NCBI GenBank assembly: GCA_014360495.1
Contig: JACIXR010000007.1
Coordinates: 44,501-108,500 of the forward strand
Direction of reading: 5' to 3'
From: a bacterium
GTDB lineage: Bacteria > Armatimonadota > JACIXR01
Length of the DNA: 64,000 nt
In this document: positions 34,026-59,044 of the stretch, in pieces
How positions within the stretch are numbered: the first letter of the stretch is position 1
Layout of the letters: every line of letters starts with the position of its first letter
Program-made: the position numbers and the translations under genes
Notes under the pieces: generated by a model
Databases searched by the model: none
Seen by the model: the letters and a program-made list of their open reading frames with translations, nothing else
What the model was told of the DNA's origin: nothing

Positions 34026-34164
34026 TCTCTCAACTCCTTTTGCCGGGGAATTTTTTCCATTATATCAAAGAAACCAAAATGAGGAAAGAAATTTGTATAC
34101 CTTATACATTTATTTCAAATGAGTAACAGAATTAGCCCTAAGGGTGTCTAAATTAGTGAGGTAA

Positions 34165-35553
34165 ATGGATATGAGCAAAAATTTATTTGCTAACATTCTT
34201 CTCTCTTTGGCTGTAGCATTATCAGCCCAAAAAGTGAAACAAGCGAACCACCTTACGCCGTATCCAAGAAATCCCTTCATTATCAAGATAGATTTCCCTC
34301 CTGTTGAGGATAGCGGCGGTGGCATTATCGTGGCGGATTTGGATGGAGATGGGAAAATGGATTATCTAATCACACGCAAAGGCTATGTAGCAGCCTATCG
34401 CTGGGACGGCGGAAAGCTCTGGGTTAAGGAAGTGGATATCCAAGTAGGTGGACCGGCGGAAAAAGTAGGATTGCCAGGTCATCACGGTCCCGGTGTGCAG
34501 GCAGGAGATATTGATGGGGATAAAAAGACGGAAGTTCTCTTTCTCACAAGGGATAGCACTCTCCATATATTGGACGGAGTTAGCGGGAAGGGAAAATACG
34601 CGATAAAGATTCCCAACCCCGAGGGAACGGATAGATGGGAGCACCTTGTGCTGGTGAATTTGAGAGGCAAAGGGGATAAAGATTTAGTACTACAAGCCAC
34701 AAATAACAAAGGATACAGGATGGGGCGCTATGTATCAGCTTTTTCCTTGGACGATTTGCTTAAAGGAAGGGTAAAACCTATTTGGCAAAGAAATGATTTC
34801 CTCGCTTGTGCACACAACGGACTTAGAGCGGTTGATTTAGATGGCGACGGAAGAGACGAAATCATAAGCGGCTCCATTTTATCACCAGATGGTAAAGAGC
34901 TATACAGATTAGAGGTGCGAGGTCATCTTGATAGCGTTTATTTTGGGGATGTCCGCCCCGATATACCCGGCTTAGAGGTAGTTGCGCTTGAAGAAGGAGG
35001 AAATCGAACCTTCCTTTACAATGCTAAGGGCTTGATATGGGTAAAGGACTATAAAGGGCAAGAGCCTCAAAACGCAGCTATCGGTGAATTTGACCCAAAG
35101 CGTCCCGGCTTGGAGATTTGGAATCGCAGTAGATACAACACTTATCAGAAGCCATGGGTATATGATGCGCTAGGGAATATAATCGCCTCTTACGAATTAA
35201 GCGAAGTAGCTCCCCCGGATTGGCCGAAAGAGGGAATAGAGGTAATCAATGCGATTCATTGGGATGGTAGCGGTCGCCAACTTTTATGTGCTATGGACAG
35301 GCAAAAGCCGGGTGATGTTGCAATTATAGACCCACTAACTGGTAAGTTCATAGCTCGCTTCAAGGAAAAAGCCGACCGTTTATATGTAGCTGATGTTGCT
35401 GGCGATTGGAGGGAGGAAGTTATAGTCCTTTCGGGAAAGGAGCTTCATATCTATCAAAATACCGCCCCTAATCCCAATCTCAAGAGGGAACGCCTCTGGA
35501 AGAATCAATGGTATAGACGAAGCAAAGCGGTCTGGAACTACTATTCGCCTTGA
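34165..35553 (+). CDS. FG-GAP/VCBS repeat beta-propeller protein, secreted
   Basis: 462 aa. Signal peptide; repeated Ca-binding-like DLDGDGKMD, GDIDGDKKTE and DLDGDGRDE loops. Confidence 0.65.
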   Translation: MDMSKNLFANILLSLAVALSAQKVKQANHLTPYPRNPFIIKIDFPPVEDSGGGIIVADLDGDGKMDYLITRKGYVAAYRWDGGKLWVKEVDIQVGGPAEKVGLPGHHGPGVQAGDIDGDKKTEVLFLTRDSTLHILDGVSGKGKYAIKIPNPEGTDRWEHLVLVNLRGKGDKDLVLQATNNKGYRMGRYVSAFSLDDLLKGRVKPIWQRNDFLACAHNGLRAVDLDGDGRDEIISGSILSPDGKELYRLEVRGHLDSVYFGDVRPDIPGLEVVALEEGGNRTFLYNAKGLIWVKDYKGQEPQNAAIGEFDPKRPGLEIWNRSRYNTYQKPWVYDALGNIIASYELSEVAPPDWPKEGIEVINAIHWDGSGRQLLCAMDRQKPGDVAIIDPLTGKFIARFKEKADRLYVADVAGDWREEVIVLSGKELHIYQNTAPNPNLKRERLWKNQWYRRSKAVWNYYSP

Positions 35554-50389: not shown

Positions 50390-50967
50390 TTTTCTTTCAC
50401 CTCTTTCTTGAATCTTTCCAATAGATTTAATGTTATTGCGTCGTCAGGGTATTTCTTCACCGCCTTCTCCAAAACCTCAACAGCTTCTTTTATCTTCCCC
50501 TGATTGTAGAGGGAATGGGCAAACATTCGCCAGACATAGGGAGGAGGTGAATAATCGGTGCAGGCTTTTCTGTAATATTCCTCCGCTTTTTTGTAATCCT
50601 TTCTCCTGAGATAGAAAAGCCCGATGTCGCTATAGGATTCCCAGGAGGGCGCCTTCTTCACCGCTTCCTCAAGCCATTTCCTCGCCTCCTCTTCCCTTCC
50701 CATACTATCGGCAAGCCAAGCGGATGTCAAATAAGCATCAACGAAGGAGGGGTCTAAAGTGATGATTAGCCTGTTTATTTTTATGCAGTAATCATATTCT
50801 CCCTCATGCCAGCAGTCGTCGCATCTTGCCCAGAGATAATCAACGAACTTATCTCTCATAGAGAGGAGAGGCTGTTTCATTTCCTTTGATTGGAAAAGGG
50901 AGAAGAGGAGAAGCCAAAAGGCACCTCCTCCAGCAAGGCAAAAGAGTTTTATATTTCCTTTCTTCAT
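50386..50967 (-). CDS. TPR-repeat protein with N-terminal signal/anchor
   Basis: Start chosen at MKKGNIKLFCLAGGGAFWLLLF; the ORF track start 51090 adds a 41-aa extension. TPR-like helices (...KDYKKAEEYYRKA...GKIKEAVEVLEKAVKKYP). ATGA overlap with the downstream lipoprotein gene. Confidence 0.55.
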   Translation of the reverse strand: MKKGNIKLFCLAGGGAFWLLLFSLFQSKEMKQPLLSMRDKFVDYLWARCDDCWHEGEYDYCIKINRLIITLDPSFVDAYLTSAWLADSMGREEEARKWLEEAVKKAPSWESYSDIGLFYLRRKDYKKAEEYYRKACTDYSPPPYVWRMFAHSLYNQGKIKEAVEVLEKAVKKYPDDAITLNLLERFKKEVKEK

Positions 50968-51174
50968 TTTCCTCTCCTTCCTTTCAATTATTAGAAATAT
51001 TTTAAATGAAAAATAAATAAAAATAAATAGTTTACTTGGTTTTGTTGCAAAATTGATATAGCCCCATAGGTACTGCTCTAATCGCCCCAAACTCGCTCAG
51101 CACATTTACAAATTTTCCGAACAATATTTATCAACAAAAACCTTTGACCTCTGTCCGAAATGCTTTAATAAAAG

Positions 51175-51203
51175 GTGTGCCCGCCCCCTGGGGGCGGGCA
51201 CAC
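51175..51203. promoter_or_regulatory. Perfect GC-rich palindrome (13-bp arms, 3-nt spacer): candidate operator or hairpin
   Basis: gtgtgcccgcccc-ctg-ggggcgggcacac. Lies in the divergent intergenic region between the TPR gene and mtaB. Confidence 0.5.
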
Positions 51204-51442
51204 TTGAAAGGAAAGGAGGTGAAAAAGATGAGGAAGAGGCTTCACGCTTCATTTTTATTAGACTATTAAGAGGGAAAAATGTTACACCCAAATAAAATGA
51301 AAGTTTTCGTTTCTTAATGTTTATTTGGGAATCTCTTTAACTCACCCCAGAATTTATTAAAGCAATTATAATCACCATAAGCGTATATTCAACCAACCTT
51401 CCTCTTTTCTCAATATTTACATCAATACCTAAGAATAAATTT

Positions 51443-51471
51443 TTTGACGACGGATAGATTTCCTACTAAAA
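51443..51471 (+). promoter_or_regulatory. Putative sigma70-type promoter of the mtaB operon
   Basis: TTGACG (51443-51448), 17-nt spacer, TAAAAT (51466-51471); followed by AGGAGG RBS and ATG 51503. Confidence 0.45.
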
Positions 51472-51502
51472 TAATTCAAAAATTTAGGAGGTTGATTTGG
51501 AT

Positions 51503-52870
51503 ATGAGTAGTATGGTTTATGAAAATTGGCAGGAGATGCTCTTCGGCATCTCAAAAAAGCCGATAAAGTGTGGCTTAGGCTTGGAGATTGGTTCAGGGGA
51601 GGTTATCCCCGAGATTAAGCCGCATCCTCGCCCCGGAATGGAAGCCAGCCTTGATTCACTGCTTGAAGAATACAAACGCATTACAAATGATATAATGGAG
51701 AGGGCAATAAAGCTTGGATTTCCCTCCATAATGTTGGAAATAGAACATGTTGCCCAACTCACCCTTAACCCGGCTTGGGGTGAAGAGGTCGTAAAGATTT
51801 GTAAGGATATCCTCCATAAATTTCATCAAAGATACGGGATAAAATGCGCTCTACGAGCCACGATAGCTGATGTGAGGAGGAGTGAGCATAATTTGAGGAA
51901 GAGCAAGGAGACAGACCTATTATTTGAATCTTTTGAAAGATGTGCCCGAGCGGGAGCAGATGTCCTCTCTATTGAATCAATAGGGGGCAAAGAGGTCTTC
52001 AATTACGCTCTCACTCGTCAGGATTTGCCAGGCATTCTCTTCGCCATAGCTGTATTGGGAAGCAGGGATATGGAATTTCTTTGGGATAGAATCGTTGAGA
52101 TAGCGGAGCAATACGAATCCATCCCGGGTGGAGATACGGATTGTGCCCACGCTAACACCGCGATGATGCTTGCTGGCGGGATGGTAGGGGGAGACTTCCC
52201 GCATACCGTTGCCGCTCTAATTAGAGCAATGGCGGGAGCCCGCTCTTTGGTTGCGGTGGAAAGGGGAGCTAAAGGACCTCTTAAGGATTGTGGATACGAA
52301 AACCCCATAATAAAGGCAATCACTGGTGTCCCAATATCCATGGAAGGGAAAACAGCTGCTTGCGCTCATATGGATTTAATGGGAAATCTCGCCGCCTCGG
52401 TATGCGACTTGTGGTCTAATGAGGCTGTTGAGTATAGAGATATGTTTGGTGGCACAACGATTGCCGTCTTCACGGAGATACTTGGCTACGATGCTTCTCT
52501 GTTCAACACAGCCCTCGCTACAGGCTACGCTGAGTGCTTAAGAGATTTGCTGGTTGCTTCTGATAAATATCGTGACCCTCAAGCATTGGTCATCTCACCA
52601 GATGTAGCCTGGGAAATCGGAAAAGTAGTAGCCGATACCCAAGGATATTACTTAAGGGCGAAAAGGGCTGTTCTTAAGGCTGGCGAAATAATTAAAAGAG
52701 AGTTAAAGGAAGGGAATTTACAAATTCCCCAACGGGAATTAGACGCCTTAGATTCCGCTCTCCTGCAACTTTCTTCCCTTCCTGACGATGAGGAGAAATT
52801 CACTCACGATATGAAGGGCAAATACGAAACACTTGTTGAGGATTTCCTTCCATCTTCCTATGACATCTAA
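51503..52870 (+). CDS. mtaB: Methanol:corrinoid methyltransferase, MtaB family
   Basis: From the Met at 51503 the protein reads SMVYENWQEMLFGISKKPIKCGLGLEIGSGEVIPEIKPHPRPG...EYKRITNDIMERAIKLGFPSIMLEIEHVAQLTLNPAWGEEV...YGIKCALRATIADVR. This closely parallels recalled Methanosarcina MtaB (SMAYANADEMTFGVSKYPVKAGLDLEIGAG...EYERITTDVMERAV...GIKCALRHTIGDIR). Conserved Cys positions (DTDCAHAN, AACAHMD) are present. The ORF track start is TTG 51497. Confidence 0.85.
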   Translation: MSSMVYENWQEMLFGISKKPIKCGLGLEIGSGEVIPEIKPHPRPGMEASLDSLLEEYKRITNDIMERAIKLGFPSIMLEIEHVAQLTLNPAWGEEVVKICKDILHKFHQRYGIKCALRATIADVRRSEHNLRKSKETDLLFESFERCARAGADVLSIESIGGKEVFNYALTRQDLPGILFAIAVLGSRDMEFLWDRIVEIAEQYESIPGGDTDCAHANTAMMLAGGMVGGDFPHTVAALIRAMAGARSLVAVERGAKGPLKDCGYENPIIKAITGVPISMEGKTAACAHMDLMGNLAASVCDLWSNEAVEYRDMFGGTTIAVFTEILGYDASLFNTALATGYAECLRDLLVASDKYRDPQALVISPDVAWEIGKVVADTQGYYLRAKRAVLKAGEIIKRELKEGNLQIPQRELDALDSALLQLSSLPDDEEKFTHDMKGKYETLVEDFLPSSYDI

Positions 52871-52885
52871 AAGGAGGTAATGCAA

Positions 52886-54631
52886 ATGTCTATCTTTAAA
52901 AATGTTTTAGCTTCGCTTTTGAGGGAAAGAAAAAGCTTTTACCCCTGCCTCTCCGCTAATCCAACGCCTACATTTGAGCAAATGAAGGCAGTTAATAGCT
53001 TCTTCCCCGCTGCTCATAAAGACCCCGAGAAGATGTCCCATTTAGCGATTGCAGGTCATAAATTAATCGGATTTGACGCAGTAAGAATCCCCTTCTGCCA
53101 AACTATTGAAGCGGAGGCGCTTGGTTGTGAGGTTTTCCTTGGTAGCGACAACATACCAACTGTCATATCCCATCCTTATCGCATAGGGGATAAGTTTATC
53201 CTTCCCGACGATATCTTAAAAAGGGGAAGAATACCCGTCCTCTTGGAAGCAATTAAAATTATCAAAGACGAAGTTAAGGAAGTGCCCCTCATAGTTGGAC
53301 TTGTTGGCCCTTTCACAATAACCGGCTATCTGTTTGGGATGACCCAACTTCTTATGCAGATGGCTATTTCACCCGAGGAGATTCTTCCTTACATGGAGAT
53401 GGCCCTACAGGTGAATGAAATTCTTGTTAAAGCTGTTGAGGAGGCGGGTGCTGACATAATCTGTGTTGAGGATATGACCGCCTCCACTGATATGATTAGT
53501 CCAGATATGTATAAAGATTTTATTCTTCCCTATCACGAAAAACTTTTTTCCTTTATATCTCTCCCCTCAATTCTCCACATTTGCGGGAATGTTACCCCTA
53601 TAATCGGATATATGGCTGAAACTGGTGCTGACGCCTTAAGCATTGATGATAAAACAGACTTGAGGAGGGCAAGAGATATTACTAAAATGAAAGTTACTTT
53701 GCTGGGTAATCTTAATCCTTCCACTACCCTTCTTCATGGGGACGAGAAAAAAGTTAGGGAAGCAACAAGAAAAGCCATCCGGGATGGAATCGACATAGTT
53801 GCTCCTGGCTGCGCCCTCCCCCTTGGTACCCCCTCTTCTAACCTGCGTGCGATGGTTGAGGAAACGCATAAGGCAAGCCTACCAAAGACCTTCACAGGAA
53901 TATCTGCTCCCATCTATCCCTTCAGACTCTACGGAATTGAAGAGAAAAAGGGAAAAGAAATAACCCCCGAAGTGGAAACTCCCTTTCCCCGTATAAGGGA
54001 AGCAGTGCTTAAAGGTAATAAAGAAGAATGCAGGAAGGCGACCGAGGAAGCCCTTTCAATAGCCAATCCCGAAGAAGTAATAGAGAAGGGATTGGTTAAG
54101 GCAATGGATGAGGTAGGGAAATTATGGGAAGAAGGCTACTTCTTCCTTCCCCAAGTTATGCTCTCCGCTGATGCTCTAATGGAGGGGTTAGAACTATGCG
54201 AGAGGAAAATGGGGGCAAGGTTGAAGAAAAAGGGGAAAGTGGTGCTTTTTGTGGCTAAAGGCGATATTCATACCATTGGCAAGAACATAGTGAAAGCACT
54301 CCTTTCTGCTTCTGGGTTTGAAGTAATAGATTTAGGAGTGGATATTGATGATGAGGAGGTTATAAGGGCAGTGAAGAAGCATAAACCGGTTCTTTTGGGG
54401 GGTTCGGCACTTATGACCACGACTATGTCTGCATTTCCCCGCATCGCCAAAAGACTTCTGGAGGAGGGTATAGAAATCCCCTTTGCCTGTGGAGGAGGAG
54501 CAGTTAATGAGGAATTTTGTGATACATTCCCCCTGGGCATATATGGAGGTGAAGCGAGAAGGGCTCCGCTGATTGCTGAGGCAGCGTTAGAGGGTAAGAA
54601 TTGGAGAGAAATCAAAGAAATGTTTCGTTAA
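52886..54631 (+). CDS. Fused MtaA-like methylcobamide methyltransferase (URO-D fold) and MtaC-like corrinoid (B12-binding) protein
   Basis: N-terminal about 340 aa match recalled archaeal MtaA (RGRIPVLLEAIKIIKDEV; LHICGNVTPI; VAPGCALPLGTP). C-terminus has a helical cap plus Rossmann B12-binding domain with the DxHxxG motif (KGDIHTIGKN) and GGSALMTTT. AGGAGG RBS 8 nt upstream of ATG 52886; 15-nt gap after mtaB. Confidence 0.85.
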   Translation: MSIFKNVLASLLRERKSFYPCLSANPTPTFEQMKAVNSFFPAAHKDPEKMSHLAIAGHKLIGFDAVRIPFCQTIEAEALGCEVFLGSDNIPTVISHPYRIGDKFILPDDILKRGRIPVLLEAIKIIKDEVKEVPLIVGLVGPFTITGYLFGMTQLLMQMAISPEEILPYMEMALQVNEILVKAVEEAGADIICVEDMTASTDMISPDMYKDFILPYHEKLFSFISLPSILHICGNVTPIIGYMAETGADALSIDDKTDLRRARDITKMKVTLLGNLNPSTTLLHGDEKKVREATRKAIRDGIDIVAPGCALPLGTPSSNLRAMVEETHKASLPKTFTGISAPIYPFRLYGIEEKKGKEITPEVETPFPRIREAVLKGNKEECRKATEEALSIANPEEVIEKGLVKAMDEVGKLWEEGYFFLPQVMLSADALMEGLELCERKMGARLKKKGKVVLFVAKGDIHTIGKNIVKALLSASGFEVIDLGVDIDDEEVIRAVKKHKPVLLGGSALMTTTMSAFPRIAKRLLEEGIEIPFACGGGAVNEEFCDTFPLGIYGGEARRAPLIAEAALEGKNWREIKEMFR

Positions 54632-54659
54632 ATTCAAAGAATGAAAAAGTTGCAACTAA

Positions 54660-57600
54660 TTAGAAGGAGCGGGTGAGGTCGAGCCTGAGACCGACATTGT
54701 TCTTCCCCTTGAAGTTATCGGTGTAGTAGCCGGACAAGCTGAGGGAGTTCTCAGGATTTATGTTGCGAGAATAGGAGAACCTGTAGGTTATTCCACCAAC
54801 CTTGTCTCCCGCAATTGAGGAGTAGTCAAGGCTAACAGAGGTATCAAGCGTCTCATAAGCGGAAAGCTTGCCGGAGATGGCAAAAAGGCTCTTGTAAACT
54901 CCCTTATTTTCCCTCTCTATGAAGTTGTATTCGTGGCATCCCTTGAAGGAAAGCTTATCGTTGAGAGGGAATGCAATCTCCCAATTGAGCTTTCTGGTAA
55001 GCTTCTTATTTGGGTCGGGAACATTATCAAGAAGCGCAATCTTCAAGTTGAACTTCGGGGAAGGAGTGTATTGAAGTGCATACTGCTTGTTCATCTTTCC
55101 ATTCATATAATTGCTATCCAGAATGTATTCACCAGAAAGGACTGGAGAGCCCTGATATTTCAAGACGACCCTCTTGGTATTGAGGACATTTCCCTTTTGG
55201 TCCTCGGGATTTCTCAACAAAGAAAGGGTGAAGGTCTTCCCATCAAAGGGATAGACGATATCCAATCCCCTCGTCGTCTTGTCGTTCTGCCCGCTCCTAT
55301 CCTTGAAGGTGAAGCTGAGCTTATAGGGGGCACCTTGAGGTTGATAATTAGCCTGAAGCAGGCGGTAAGAGTTGGATTTATCTCCGAGGGACTGGATTCC
55401 ATATGCGAGATTGCCAGTTAAACCTGGGATGAAAGTCCTCGTTAAGGAGAATTCCTGCTTCTTTCCGTCCTTCCCGTTTTGCGTCATCTTGATGTTCTCC
55501 GCTTTAAACTGGGATTGGGAATCAAGTTTTTGAACAAGAGCTATCCTCCTGAAGCTGTGCTCCGCGCTTTCCTTAAAGGAAAAGCTCAAGGTTCCCGCTT
55601 TTCCTTTAAGCAAAGGAGAGTTGATATCAATGCTTCCTTCGTCAATTCTCTTGCCATCCTCCAGATTTTTACGAGAAAAGTTAAGGGCGTAGGAGAAGTT
55701 TTTCTTCAAAGACTGGTTAAAGTTTATAACGGTCAAATCGGACTGAAATTCCTTATCCCCTTCCTTCCTGTATCCCTGCATCCTCTGGAGTTTGAGGTGA
55801 GCATTGGCGAAGGCTTTCTCAACTATCAGGTTATAGATGTCGTTGGAACGATTAACATCGCTAACCTGCTTGGTGGAATCCAAAGTGAGATAGGCTTTCA
55901 GATTATTCTTGCCGGTGAATGCCAAGTTATGGACGCTATGGGTTGTGGATTTGCCCCACATCCCGTCGCTCCTCGTGATATCCAAGCTCTCTATCTTGGT
56001 GATGGAGGTGGAGAAGGCAAGATTCTTTGAGAGAGGCAATGCAAGGAAGAAGTCCTTCTTCTCCGCGGACCTCTCCTGGGCAAGGCGTCCCTTGTCAGCC
56101 TCTGCTAAATCCGCAAATCTCGTGAACGATGGGTCTATGGTTTGAGTTGCGAAGCGGAAAATAGGCTGGTCCTTCACTTTCAGCTCTATGCTCTTCCCGT
56201 CAATTGAACCTTGAGAGTCCCCTATCTTGCGAGAGGATAGAGAAAGGGTCAAGCCCGGCAGGAGGTTATCAAGCTTGAAATTACCGCTCAAGAGGGATTT
56301 CTTTATTCCCCATTCATTGGCAAATCTCTTCTTTTCCGGGTCGGTCAAATCTCCGAAACGCCTGAACCCCTCGCTGAACTCACTCTTATAGAACGAGATT
56401 TGCCACTTATCGCTCTTCAATTGTAGGCTGTTGCCCTTCCAACCTTCTTTCCCATCCAATAAGCTAGCGATGCTAAAGGAAGTCTGCAATTTAGGCGAGA
56501 AGTTGAACGAACCCTCAATGGTCTTCCTCGCCAACCCCTTTTCCTTTGCGAGCTGACCAGCGTCGGGCTCAGTTAAATTGCCAAAGCGAGCGAAATCCCG
56601 TCCAACTTCCTGCTTGCTGATTGAAAGGGAGAAATTCTTCCCCTTCAAGTCCAATTTCCCCCTCTCAATTCCATCCTTCTCATCTTTTATCCTCGTCTGG
56701 GAAAGGTTGAGGGTAATATTGGGGAGAAGATTCTTGGAAAGTTCCAGTGAATTCCTGCTTATCCCAATCTCCTTCGCCCATATTTTCGCTTCCGGCTCGT
56801 TCAAATCCTTCCCCCTCACGAAATCGGAGGTTATGCTTTGCTGGGTTAGACGGAGGAACTCGTTGTTATTGCCCTTTAGCTCTATCTGCCTCAATTTTCC
56901 CTCCCCTTTACCGTCGGTGGCGGATTTGTAAACAGTGGAAAGGGAAAGCGAATCGGAGAGCTTTATCTGCCCAGAGATTATCTGCTTGGTGATTCCCTTC
57001 TCCCTTGCCACTCCTTGGTTGCCCTTCGTTTGGGGGTCAACGGTTTGGCGAGTGAAGGAAAGGGAAAAAGCGGAGCTTTGGTAGCCAACTCCAAACTTCT
57101 TCGTGCCCGCCTCCTGCTTGAGGAAGGCAACATCCTTGCCGTTTAGATTATCGGGAATTCCCTGAGCGAGGAAATCCTTGTCTATCTCCTGATAGAAGAG
57201 GGTCAGCTTCCCCTTCCCCAAGGAGTAATCCAACCAGTTGGCGAAAGCCTTGCCTTTCTGGGAGGGAGCAGGGGCAGCGTTATCCCTTGTCATACCAGCA
57301 AGATAGTTATTCGTTGGTGATGTTCTGCTGAAGAAGAGGAGTCCCCTCCAAGTCGCATTGGAGCTCAACTTTGAGGTCAAGTCACTGCCGACAATCCAAG
57401 TCTCCATCTTATCCTGACCCGCTACAGCGGGGCGGAAGAAAGTAAATAGGCTGAGGGTAGATGAACCGCCGTTGAACGCAAGCTGGAGAGGCAGTCCGCT
57501 TGGAGATTGATTCTGCTTATTCGGGTCATAGTGATAAGAGACGATGAGGGTTCCCGATTTTATGTCCCCAGGGAGGAGAATCGTTCCATTAGCGTAATCA

Positions 57601-57854
57601 ATGATATAATCTACATCCCGCTTGAGGAAGCGCCCATTTGCGATTACCTTCTCGCTTCCCTCCACTATCCCCCTATGGGAGAGATAGAATACGCCACCCT
57701 TTACCACCTTCAGGGTGTCTGTGTAGAAAAGGGCTCCCTGTACGGCTGGCGCCTCATTCTGAAACCTCAAGGCTCCATTGGGCGCCGGCAATTCAAGGGA
57801 AAAAGCAAGGGAAGCTATCAAGCTAATTAAACTCAAAAATAGGAAACGCTTCAT
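54660..57854 (-). CDS. Giant outer-membrane-like protein with internal ~45-aa degenerate repeats and C-terminal aromatic residue
   Basis: Signal peptide MKRFLFLSLISLIASLAFS, taking the start at the internal Met 57854; the ORF track start is 57884. At least five repeats of type [D/E]F.RFG.L.[ED]P.... (DFARFGNLTEPDAG..., GFRRFGDLTDPEKK..., SFTRFADLAEADKG...). Ends ...GLRLDLTRSF, as in beta-barrel OMPs. Confidence 0.5.
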   Translation of the reverse strand: MKRFLFLSLISLIASLAFSLELPAPNGALRFQNEAPAVQGALFYTDTLKVVKGGVFYLSHRGIVEGSEKVIANGRFLKRDVDYIIDYANGTILLPGDIKSGTLIVSYHYDPNKQNQSPSGLPLQLAFNGGSSTLSLFTFFRPAVAGQDKMETWIVGSDLTSKLSSNATWRGLLFFSRTSPTNNYLAGMTRDNAAPAPSQKGKAFANWLDYSLGKGKLTLFYQEIDKDFLAQGIPDNLNGKDVAFLKQEAGTKKFGVGYQSSAFSLSFTRQTVDPQTKGNQGVAREKGITKQIISGQIKLSDSLSLSTVYKSATDGKGEGKLRQIELKGNNNEFLRLTQQSITSDFVRGKDLNEPEAKIWAKEIGISRNSLELSKNLLPNITLNLSQTRIKDEKDGIERGKLDLKGKNFSLSISKQEVGRDFARFGNLTEPDAGQLAKEKGLARKTIEGSFNFSPKLQTSFSIASLLDGKEGWKGNSLQLKSDKWQISFYKSEFSEGFRRFGDLTDPEKKRFANEWGIKKSLLSGNFKLDNLLPGLTLSLSSRKIGDSQGSIDGKSIELKVKDQPIFRFATQTIDPSFTRFADLAEADKGRLAQERSAEKKDFFLALPLSKNLAFSTSITKIESLDITRSDGMWGKSTTHSVHNLAFTGKNNLKAYLTLDSTKQVSDVNRSNDIYNLIVEKAFANAHLKLQRMQGYRKEGDKEFQSDLTVINFNQSLKKNFSYALNFSRKNLEDGKRIDEGSIDINSPLLKGKAGTLSFSFKESAEHSFRRIALVQKLDSQSQFKAENIKMTQNGKDGKKQEFSLTRTFIPGLTGNLAYGIQSLGDKSNSYRLLQANYQPQGAPYKLSFTFKDRSGQNDKTTRGLDIVYPFDGKTFTLSLLRNPEDQKGNVLNTKRVVLKYQGSPVLSGEYILDSNYMNGKMNKQYALQYTPSPKFNLKIALLDNVPDPNKKLTRKLNWEIAFPLNDKLSFKGCHEYNFIERENKGVYKSLFAISGKLSAYETLDTSVSLDYSSIAGDKVGGITYRFSYSRNINPENSLSLSGYYTDNFKGKNNVGLRLDLTRSF

Positions 57855-57902
57855 AGTTTCTCTCACCTCCTTGGGGACCACCATCGGGGTTCAACTCCCA
57901 AA

Positions 57903-58949: not shown

Positions 58950-59044
58950 TTTGCATAACCTCCTTTCATTTACATATGACTATAAATTCGTTATTTCGTT
59001 ACAGAATCACCCCAATAAGGAGGCTCAATAGATCATCTTTTAAA

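Follow-up and report, generated by a model that had tools for sequence, protein, structure and literature searches.

The spacer upstream of mtaB

The DNA analyzed here is a 64-kb stretch of contig JACIXR010000007.1 (assembly GCA_014360495.1, positions 44,501 to 108,500) from a bacterium of the Armatimonadota; we refer to this stretch in its full length as the window. Within it, a non-coding spacer separates a leftward TPR gene from a rightward methanol methyltransferase cassette, mtaB-mtaAC, where we confirm both MtaB (Pfam match 4e-196) and a fused protein of URO-D and B12-binding domains. Our subject is a short conserved unit on the minus strand of this spacer, a candidate small RNA gene with a putative promoter and a probable terminator of its own (Table 1). 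An earlier note on this DNA had described the spacer as a 410-bp control region of mtaB with four features: a GC-rich palindrome, a mini-open reading frame (mini-ORF) of 13 codons behind a strong Shine-Dalgarno sequence, an AT-rich inverted repeat, and a TTGACG-17-TAAAAT promoter. All four exist as described when read directly in the sequence, with the one correction that the promoter occupies 51444-51472 rather than 51443-51471. The spacer itself is longer. The TPR gene most likely starts at ATG 50967, not TTG 51090; this ATG has a Shine-Dalgarno sequence (AGGAGAGG), the public gene calls are of 193 aa, and the spacer thus measures ~529 bp instead of 410 bp. The TTG-initiated reading of the TPR open reading frame from 51090 (234 aa) is probably an over-extension across 50967-51090 of the minus strand.

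Among the four features, only the 13-bp palindrome is statistically unusual. When the 529-bp spacer was simulated 300 times with a first-order Markov model, arms of at least 13 bp arose once and inverted-repeat arms of at least 10 bp 25 times (8%), which makes the AT-rich repeat insignificant when taken alone. Matches to the promoter consensus in the region number 4 against 3.2 expected, with no enrichment.

A probable terminator on the minus strand

A consensus terminator scan calls the palindrome on the minus strand only, where 13 base pairs (11 of them GC) and a loop of 3 are followed by the T run CTTTTATTAA; on the plus strand, the hairpin is followed by TTGAAAGG, which contains no T tract. 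In every locus of our alignment of the unit (alignment A1), the T run lies 3′ of the hairpin on the minus strand. Over six loci, the helix is 96.6% paired and 6 of its 15 pairs show compensatory changes, a result that none of 500 shuffles matched. The sequence of the stem varies among these loci while its pairing is kept, and in two loci, L002 and L095, it is entirely different. Both a stem with a T tract and a structure conserved over its sequence are therefore found, as in an intrinsic terminator. Because the T run is restricted to the minus strand and the stem is maintained by compensatory changes, we conclude that the palindrome is very probably the minus-strand terminator of a unit independent of mtaB. 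Folding of the single sequence gives similar z-scores on the two strands (-4.7 and -5.0), dominated by two palindromes, and thus cannot assign the strand. The terminator loops of L002 (7237-7240) and L095 (7840-7843) are reverse complements of each other (TAAT versus ATTA) in hairpins that are otherwise identical, the outcome that would be expected of a loop flip within a perfect palindrome.

A unit that stays in place while the mta cassette moves

Related loci were obtained from a scan of species-representative genomes for MtaB, which yielded three close loci (L002, L001, and L003), and from a metagenome pattern scan together with look-ups of homologues of a 1074-aa protein encoded beyond the cassette. 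The contig of the window is represented in sequencing runs that include SRR14699989, SRR11866714, and SRR11866715, and related loci occur in JGI samples 3300043540 and 3300045880 and in contigs Ga0080004_1150000 and Ga0078972_1014398. When the spacer is compared with L002 by BLAST, window positions 51207-51288 match in reversed orientation, immediately after the mtaAC stop, and are followed by a different GC hairpin with a T run. A tblastx comparison resolves this arrangement: with the 1074/1075-aa gene as reference, the mtaB-mtaAC cassette of L002 is inverted and the conserved segment has kept its orientation.

Three layouts of the locus are observed. L081 and L086 share that of the window, with the cassette divergent from the unit and convergent with the 1074-aa gene. 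In L002 and L095, the cassette is inverted and co-oriented with the 1074-aa gene, and the unit lies directly after the mtaAC stop in the same orientation. In L082 and L087, the cassette has been deleted except for 48 nt from the 3′ end of mtaAC, and the unit still follows the 1074-aa gene. As the unit is fixed while the cassette beside it is divergent, inverted, or deleted, it is an autonomous unit rather than a cis element of mtaB. In L001 and L003, the mtaB promoter is present without the unit. Among the window and 95 fetched loci, copies of the unit occur only in the clade that carries, or formerly carried, the mta cassette beside the 1074-aa gene. We also considered whether the unit might be a leader for the TPR operon and rejected this, as the downstream gene differs in every layout. 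In L002 and L095, mtaAC has lost its own stop and ends two codons later, at a TAA inside the TGTAAC box described below.

Conservation of the unit begins exactly at the bipartite motif TGTAAC-N16-AGTCTAA in all six aligned loci and proceeds in blocks. Relative to the window, the -35 block GGTGTAACATTTTT is identical at 13-14 of 14 positions, the promoter spacer at 5-9 of 10 with its length constant, and the -10 block ATAGTCTAAT with a few bases beyond it at 11-15 of 15. These are followed by a CU-rich stretch, GAAGCGUGAAGCCUCUUCC...CUUUUUCACCUCCUUUCCUUUC, with 40-45 of 45 positions identical, which would form the transcribed, single-stranded part. The terminator stem-loop retains 19-28 of 32 positions, and the sequence past it 7-12 of 21. 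By comparison, four-fold degenerate sites of the flanking genes are 40-51% identical in L002 and 68-77% in L086, from which it follows that the CU-rich stretch is under strong constraint at the nucleotide level. Such block-wise conservation is the pattern that would be expected of a promoter, a short RNA, and a terminator in succession.

A putative promoter motif shared with an anti-sigma operon

The bipartite motif at the start of the unit resembles promoters of extracytoplasmic function (ECF) sigma factors. For SigX-type promoters of Bacillus subtilis, the consensus of Huang and Helmann (1998), as cited in PMC8024623 and PMC12153292, is tgtAACnww at -35 and CGwCww at -10. Measured against these forms, the -35 of the unit (TGTAACATT) fits, its -10 (AGTCTA) fits at 5 of 6 positions with A in place of the first C, and its 16-nt spacer is within the ECF range. 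The features of an ECF promoter, namely an AAC core at -35 and a GTC- or CGTC-like -10 at a distance of 16-17 nt, are thus present apart from that first -10 base.

The 64 kb contain two exact copies of TGTAAC-N16-AGTC, where 0.03 would be expected, and none of 200 simulations produced two or more. The second copy lies ~35 nt upstream of the start of an anti-sigma (zf-HC2) gene, which is followed by the gene of the 1074-aa protein. This second site is kept in eight lineages (the window, L082/L087, L089, L090/L091, L092, L093, L094, and L095), in which its spacer has diverged in sequence with the same length and the 1074-aa proteins are down to 55% identical. The anti-sigma assignment is supported by the NCBIfam RsrA-type model, which scores 77.4 bits against a cut-off of 62.5. 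The protein has tandem zinc-binding motifs (HLQECERC and HIAMCGDC), one membrane segment, and a long proline-rich tail. The 1074-aa protein has a signal peptide and a C-terminus ending in ...LTRSF, and C-termini of this kind are typical of outer-membrane beta-barrels. It matches no Pfam or NCBIfam family, and a search of 5.8 billion proteins found only 13 homologues. By analogy with known ECF promoters, the TGTAAC/AGTC motif is presumably recognized by a sigma factor of this class.

A third, weaker ECF-like site was noticed at 34123-34151 on the plus strand, with AGTAAC, one extra spacer base, and GTCTAA. Some 15 nt downstream of it is the ribosome-binding site for a secreted FG-GAP/rhamnogalacturonan-lyase-like protein (34165-35553), and this ECF-like site may be part of the same regulon.

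A candidate small RNA

From the geometry of the promoter and terminator, the 5′ end of a transcript would lie ~7 nt past the -10, near 51250, and its 3′ end in the U tract. The CU-rich region of such an RNA, which includes the putative seed segment UCACCUCC, holds UCACCUCCUUUC, the complement of 51211-51222, and this resembles the anti-Shine-Dalgarno tail of 16S rRNA. The reading that we favor is that the palindrome and mini-ORF region encodes, on its minus strand, a small RNA of ~85 nt that is ECF-sigma-dependent and has an anti-Shine-Dalgarno-like seed. We give this full reading an even chance of being correct. A small RNA element had been mentioned in passing in the earlier note, and it is this suggestion that now provides the best account of the region.

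In the mechanism that we propose, the cognate ECF sigma factor, once released from its anti-sigma factor, would transcribe from TGTAAC-N16-AGTCTAA with a start at ~51250. The transcript would comprise ~45 nt of invariant, pyrimidine-rich, and mostly unpaired RNA with UCACCUCCUUUC, then the GC hairpin and U tract, ending at ~51166. The unpaired UCACCUCCUUUC would pair with the Shine-Dalgarno regions of target mRNAs and thereby reduce their translation. Plausible targets would be envelope proteins, such as those of the neighboring anti-sigma/outer-membrane-like operon under the same promoter motif. The production of this RNA, its action through base pairing, and the identity of its targets are matters that we infer from the sequence. 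Broader still is the picture of an outer-membrane-bearing lineage whose ECF-sigma regulon has a non-coding arm, a small RNA with essentially the anti-Shine-Dalgarno tail of 16S rRNA as its seed, made from the promoter type of the anti-sigma/outer-membrane-like operon and feeding back on that operon and on other strongly translated envelope genes. We offer it as a tentative proposal that is somewhat more likely to be wrong than right.

The target search is unspecific. The anti-sigma, 1074-aa, and TPR genes each have 10 nt of perfect complementarity in their ribosome-binding sites, which is generic for strong Shine-Dalgarno sequences, and a window-wide duplex scan was uninformative, its hits being long, gapped pairings with coding DNA rich in purines. 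An Rfam scan, which the earlier note had proposed as a check, assigned no family at the gathering score. Between 50900 and 51600, there was no cobalamin riboswitch (RF00174) or other cis-regulatory RNA, either at the gathering score or at E<=10. The best sub-threshold alignment was to VrrA, on the minus strand, by way of the CU-rich stretch and terminator. With 22.8 bits against a gathering score of 50, membership in this family is rejected, and we treat the match as an architectural resemblance only. A minus-strand open reading frame of 48/61 aa that runs through the hairpin was likewise rejected; it has no Shine-Dalgarno sequence, lacks its ATG in L002, and crosses the terminator.

Several points weigh against the small RNA. 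The predicted unit is known from only five distinct sequence variants, all of one narrow uncultured clade; beside the same operon in distant relatives (L088-L094), the unit is absent, and the distant 1074-aa loci (55-69% identity) retain the motif upstream of the anti-sigma gene. Complementarity to ribosome-binding sites would be expected for any anti-Shine-Dalgarno-like sequence. A helix predicted by RNAalifold upstream of the terminator shows no covariation and is broken by one substitution in L086. The -10 reads AGTC and not the CGWC of SigX. No ECF sigma gene was found in the window by phmmer with RpoE and SigW queries and by a regular expression, so that the link between a sigma factor and the promoter is drawn by analogy only. 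No sigma gene adjoins the anti-sigma gene; the TGTAAC motif is conserved upstream of the latter in eight lineages. Finally, the plus strand carries a perfect Shine-Dalgarno sequence with an ATG, the first 8 codons of the mini-ORF being conserved in 5 of 6 loci, and in the sixth, L002, an indel of 1 nt before the ATG and one of 3 nt after it leave the ATG in frame.

Alternative explanations

The unit could instead be an orphaned terminator with its 3′ untranslated region (UTR), which once closed either the mta operon or the 1074-aa gene. In the window, inversion of the cassette would have left it with no upstream gene, and it would now serve at most as a transcriptional insulator before the TPR operon. 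This account is unlikely. The unit abuts the mtaAC stop in L002 and L095 and follows the 1074-aa gene in L082 and L087, in each case co-oriented; synteny demonstrates the inversion; and mtaAC in the window has no terminator of its own in the 28 bp that separate its stop from that of the convergent gene (54632-54659). A plain terminator leaves unexplained, however, why the 45 nt upstream of a drifting stem are nearly invariant, why conservation sets in at a two-part motif resembling a -35 and a -10, whose spacer varies in sequence but not in length, and why this motif recurs upstream of the anti-sigma operon. A small RNA derived from a 3′ UTR would be compatible with both this explanation and the one that we favor.

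A further alternative is a micro-protein gene on the plus strand, with the Shine-Dalgarno sequence GAAAGGAGGTGA, a spacing of 6-7 nt, an ATG opening MRKRLHASF..., and the GC hairpin as a stabilizing 5′ stem-loop. Its Shine-Dalgarno sequence, spacing, and ATG are conserved in all variants, a TAT>TAC change in L082 and L087 is synonymous, and the paired indels of L002 noted above preserve the ATG-led frame. Read on the other strand, AGGAGGTG and codons 1-8 form the invariant CU-rich stretch that precedes the terminator, codons 9-13 coincide with the -10 block, and the stop codon lies in the promoter spacer, which is variable. The predicted peptides have 10, 13, 22, or 35 residues, with a frameshift in L081 and loss of the stop in L086 and L002, and most substitutions are non-synonymous or occur within blocks of invariant nucleotide sequence. 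The left flank, from which the plus strand would be transcribed, is entirely different among the window, L081, L082, L086, and L002, and contains no conserved promoter; a plus-strand terminator is also lacking, the T tract being on the other strand. We judge that the mini-ORF is probably not a gene, and the micro-protein as a full explanation is decidedly improbable.

Very improbable, too, is a DNA-level site for recombination or protein binding that flips or excises the mta cassette. The junctions of the inverted and deleted cassettes fall at or near the upstream edge of the unit, and neighboring segments are further rearranged in L086. These junctions differ, however: that of L002 is at GGTGTAAC, and those of L082 and L087 are ~40 nt upstream of this point. 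The far end of the cassette yielded no inverted copy of the segment, no recombinase gene is adjacent, and the hairpin covaries as an RNA or terminator structure does.

Control of mtaB in cis by a palindromic operator, a leader peptide or attenuator, and the inverted repeat, as the earlier note had envisaged, is scarcely credible: in the window, L081, and L086, the features do precede mtaB, and the block 51356-51395 is conserved among these three loci, but the palindrome is ~240 bp from the mtaB -35, conserved in pairing and not in sequence, and absent from L001 and L003, which share the mtaB promoter; the unit persists where mtaB is missing (L082 and L087) or where the unit lies downstream of or antisense to the inverted cassette (L002 and L095); a leader peptide would range from 10 to 35 codons; Rfam riboswitch and leader matches are lacking; and the hairpin carries its T tract only on the strand opposite mtaB, which makes attenuation implausible.

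Other features of the locus

The promoter claimed for mtaB fared better. In alignment A3, six lineages (the window, L081, L086, L002, L003, and L001) all have TAAAAT at -10 together with a -35 of the TTG type, and mtaB credibly has a conserved sigma-70-type promoter of its own. The AT-rich inverted repeat is perfect in the window only; relatives have CCGAAATAAA, which introduces a G-G mismatch, and L002 and L095 lack it. An AT-rich upstream element and an insulating hairpin are both possibilities for this repeat. The hexamers TTGAAT-16-TATAAT were considered as a promoter of the unit and rejected: the -35 is kept, but the -10 reads CGTAAT in L081 and CGTAGC in L086, and the motif is missing from L002, L082, and L087. 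The block in which it lies (51356-51395) is conserved only in the closest relatives and is absent from the same three loci.

Table 1. Features in and around the spacer (window coordinates, except where a related locus is named)
Feature	Position	Strand	Basis or remark
Predicted small RNA, ~85 nt	51166..51250	-	Promoter and terminator geometry
Invariant CU-rich region, putative seed	51207..51250	-	Alignment A1
ECF-sigma-type promoter of the unit: -35 TGTAAC (51286-51281), 16-nt spacer, -10 AGTCTAA (51264-51258)	51258..51286	-	Conservation
Intrinsic terminator: 13-bp GC stem-loop (51203-51175), then CUUUUAUUAA	51166..51203	-	Terminator scan and covariation
Palindrome GTGTGCCCGCCCC-CTG-GGGGCGGGCACAC	51175-51203		Perfect 13-bp arms, read in sequence
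Shine-Dalgarno-like AGGAGGTG	51214-51221	+	Read in sequence
13-codon mini-ORF MRKRLHASFLLDY, ATG 51228, TAA 51267-51269	51228..51269	+	Probably not a gene
Mini-ORF peptide, residues			Window 13; L081 10 (one-base deletion); L082 13; L087 13; L086 22; L002 35 (runs antisense into mtaAC)
AT-rich inverted repeat CCCAAATAAA / TTTATTTGGG	51287-51296, 51320-51329		Abuts the -35 of the unit upstream
Sigma-70-like hexamers TTGAAT-16-TATAAT	51365..51392	-	Scan; inside block 51356-51395
Sigma-70-type mtaB promoter TTGACG-17-TAAAAT	51444..51472	+	Consensus scan and conservation
mta cassette polymorphism	51290-54659; L002 3895-7140; L095 4502-7743; L082 11679-11760; L087 4982-5060		
1074-aa outer-membrane-like gene	54660-57884	-	Follows the anti-sigma gene
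Anti-sigma (zf-HC2) gene, 348 aa	57903-58949	-	Pfam zf-HC2 5.6e-25; NCBIfam RsrA-type
Paralogous ECF-type promoter TGTAAC-N16-AGTCATA	58978..59003	-	Upstream of the anti-sigma and 1074-aa genes
Repetitive extragenic palindrome (REP)-like units	L082 11935-12090; L081 2288-2330, 2556-2660; L086 7800-7840; L087 5226-5259		

The mtaAC partner of mtaB (52880-54631, plus strand) is a single 583-aa fusion of a URO-D domain (MtaA-like) with two B12-binding domains (MtaC-like). Further observations concern the DNA between the unit and the TPR gene. An 87-nt segment there (window 51036-51121) is inverted in L086 (3740-4225), where it sits in a ~440-bp insert at the mtaAC stop that is bordered by an imperfect duplication of ~13 nt (TTAACGAAACATT / CTAACGAAGCATT); this arrangement suggests that a small segment is mobile or recombines. 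Also in L086 (8133-8302), the DNA separating the unit from the TPR gene holds 3.5 tandem copies of a 49-nt repeat, 99% matching, each with the palindrome CTCCAACCCAACAGGGTTGGAG. In relatives, REP-like palindromic units (GATTGC-hairpin-GCAATGACA) cluster just 3′ of the terminator of the unit, and none occur within the 64-kb window.

Implications and comparison with known systems

If it is transcribed as predicted, the unit would represent a new small RNA family with no Rfam match and would belong to a further, independent ECF-sigma stress regulon with a small RNA, from a lineage for which metagenomes are the sole source. The design of a coding and a non-coding arm, so far demonstrated in Proteobacteria and Fusobacteria, would then extend to another deep lineage with an unrelated RNA. 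For annotation, the locus suggests that what reads as a strong Shine-Dalgarno sequence, a mini-ORF, and a palindrome ahead of a metabolic operon can, on the opposite strand, be a small RNA of the anti-Shine-Dalgarno type followed by its terminator. The methanol methyltransferase cassette is, within this clade, a movable block found divergent, inverted, or deleted beside a fixed, putatively regulatory unit, and mtaB itself appears ordinary, with a plain, conserved sigma-70-type promoter and neither a riboswitch nor an attenuator.

The closest parallels are the sigmaE-dependent small RNAs that repress envelope proteins, such as MicA (PMC1851643) and FoxI (PMC9546586). The unit would share with MicA, RybB, MicL, and VrrA (RF01456) the architecture of a short RNA (~70-140 nt) with an ECF-type promoter and a GC hairpin followed by a U tract, an envelope-linked locus, and a pyrimidine-rich, single-stranded region that pairs with ribosome-binding sites, the last being a candidate only in our case. 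The micA promoter also has an AT-rich element upstream of its -35 (PMC1851643). Unlike these RNAs, the unit has a SigX-like promoter (TGTAAC/AGTC) in place of GGAACTT/TCAAA, belongs to none of their families by sequence or covariance model, and carries a seed that is an almost complete anti-Shine-Dalgarno sequence. FoxI of Fusobacterium nucleatum is a sigmaE-dependent small RNA that blocks the Shine-Dalgarno regions of outer-membrane and envelope mRNAs (PMC9546586). It is a precedent for a non-coding arm of an ECF-sigma regulon outside the Proteobacteria, although its sequence is unrelated and FoxI is experimentally validated, whereas the unit in the window is predicted.

A second parallel is with small RNAs derived from 3′ UTRs. 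CpxQ, DapZ, and SroC are of this type. Like them, the unit forms the 3′ UTR of a co-oriented gene in L002, L095, L082, and L087, and its conservation is limited to the ~80-100 nt before the terminator. In contrast, the unit is not preceded by a co-oriented gene in the window, L081, or L086, such that an internal promoter would be required there, and the conserved bipartite motif suggests a primary rather than a processed transcript.

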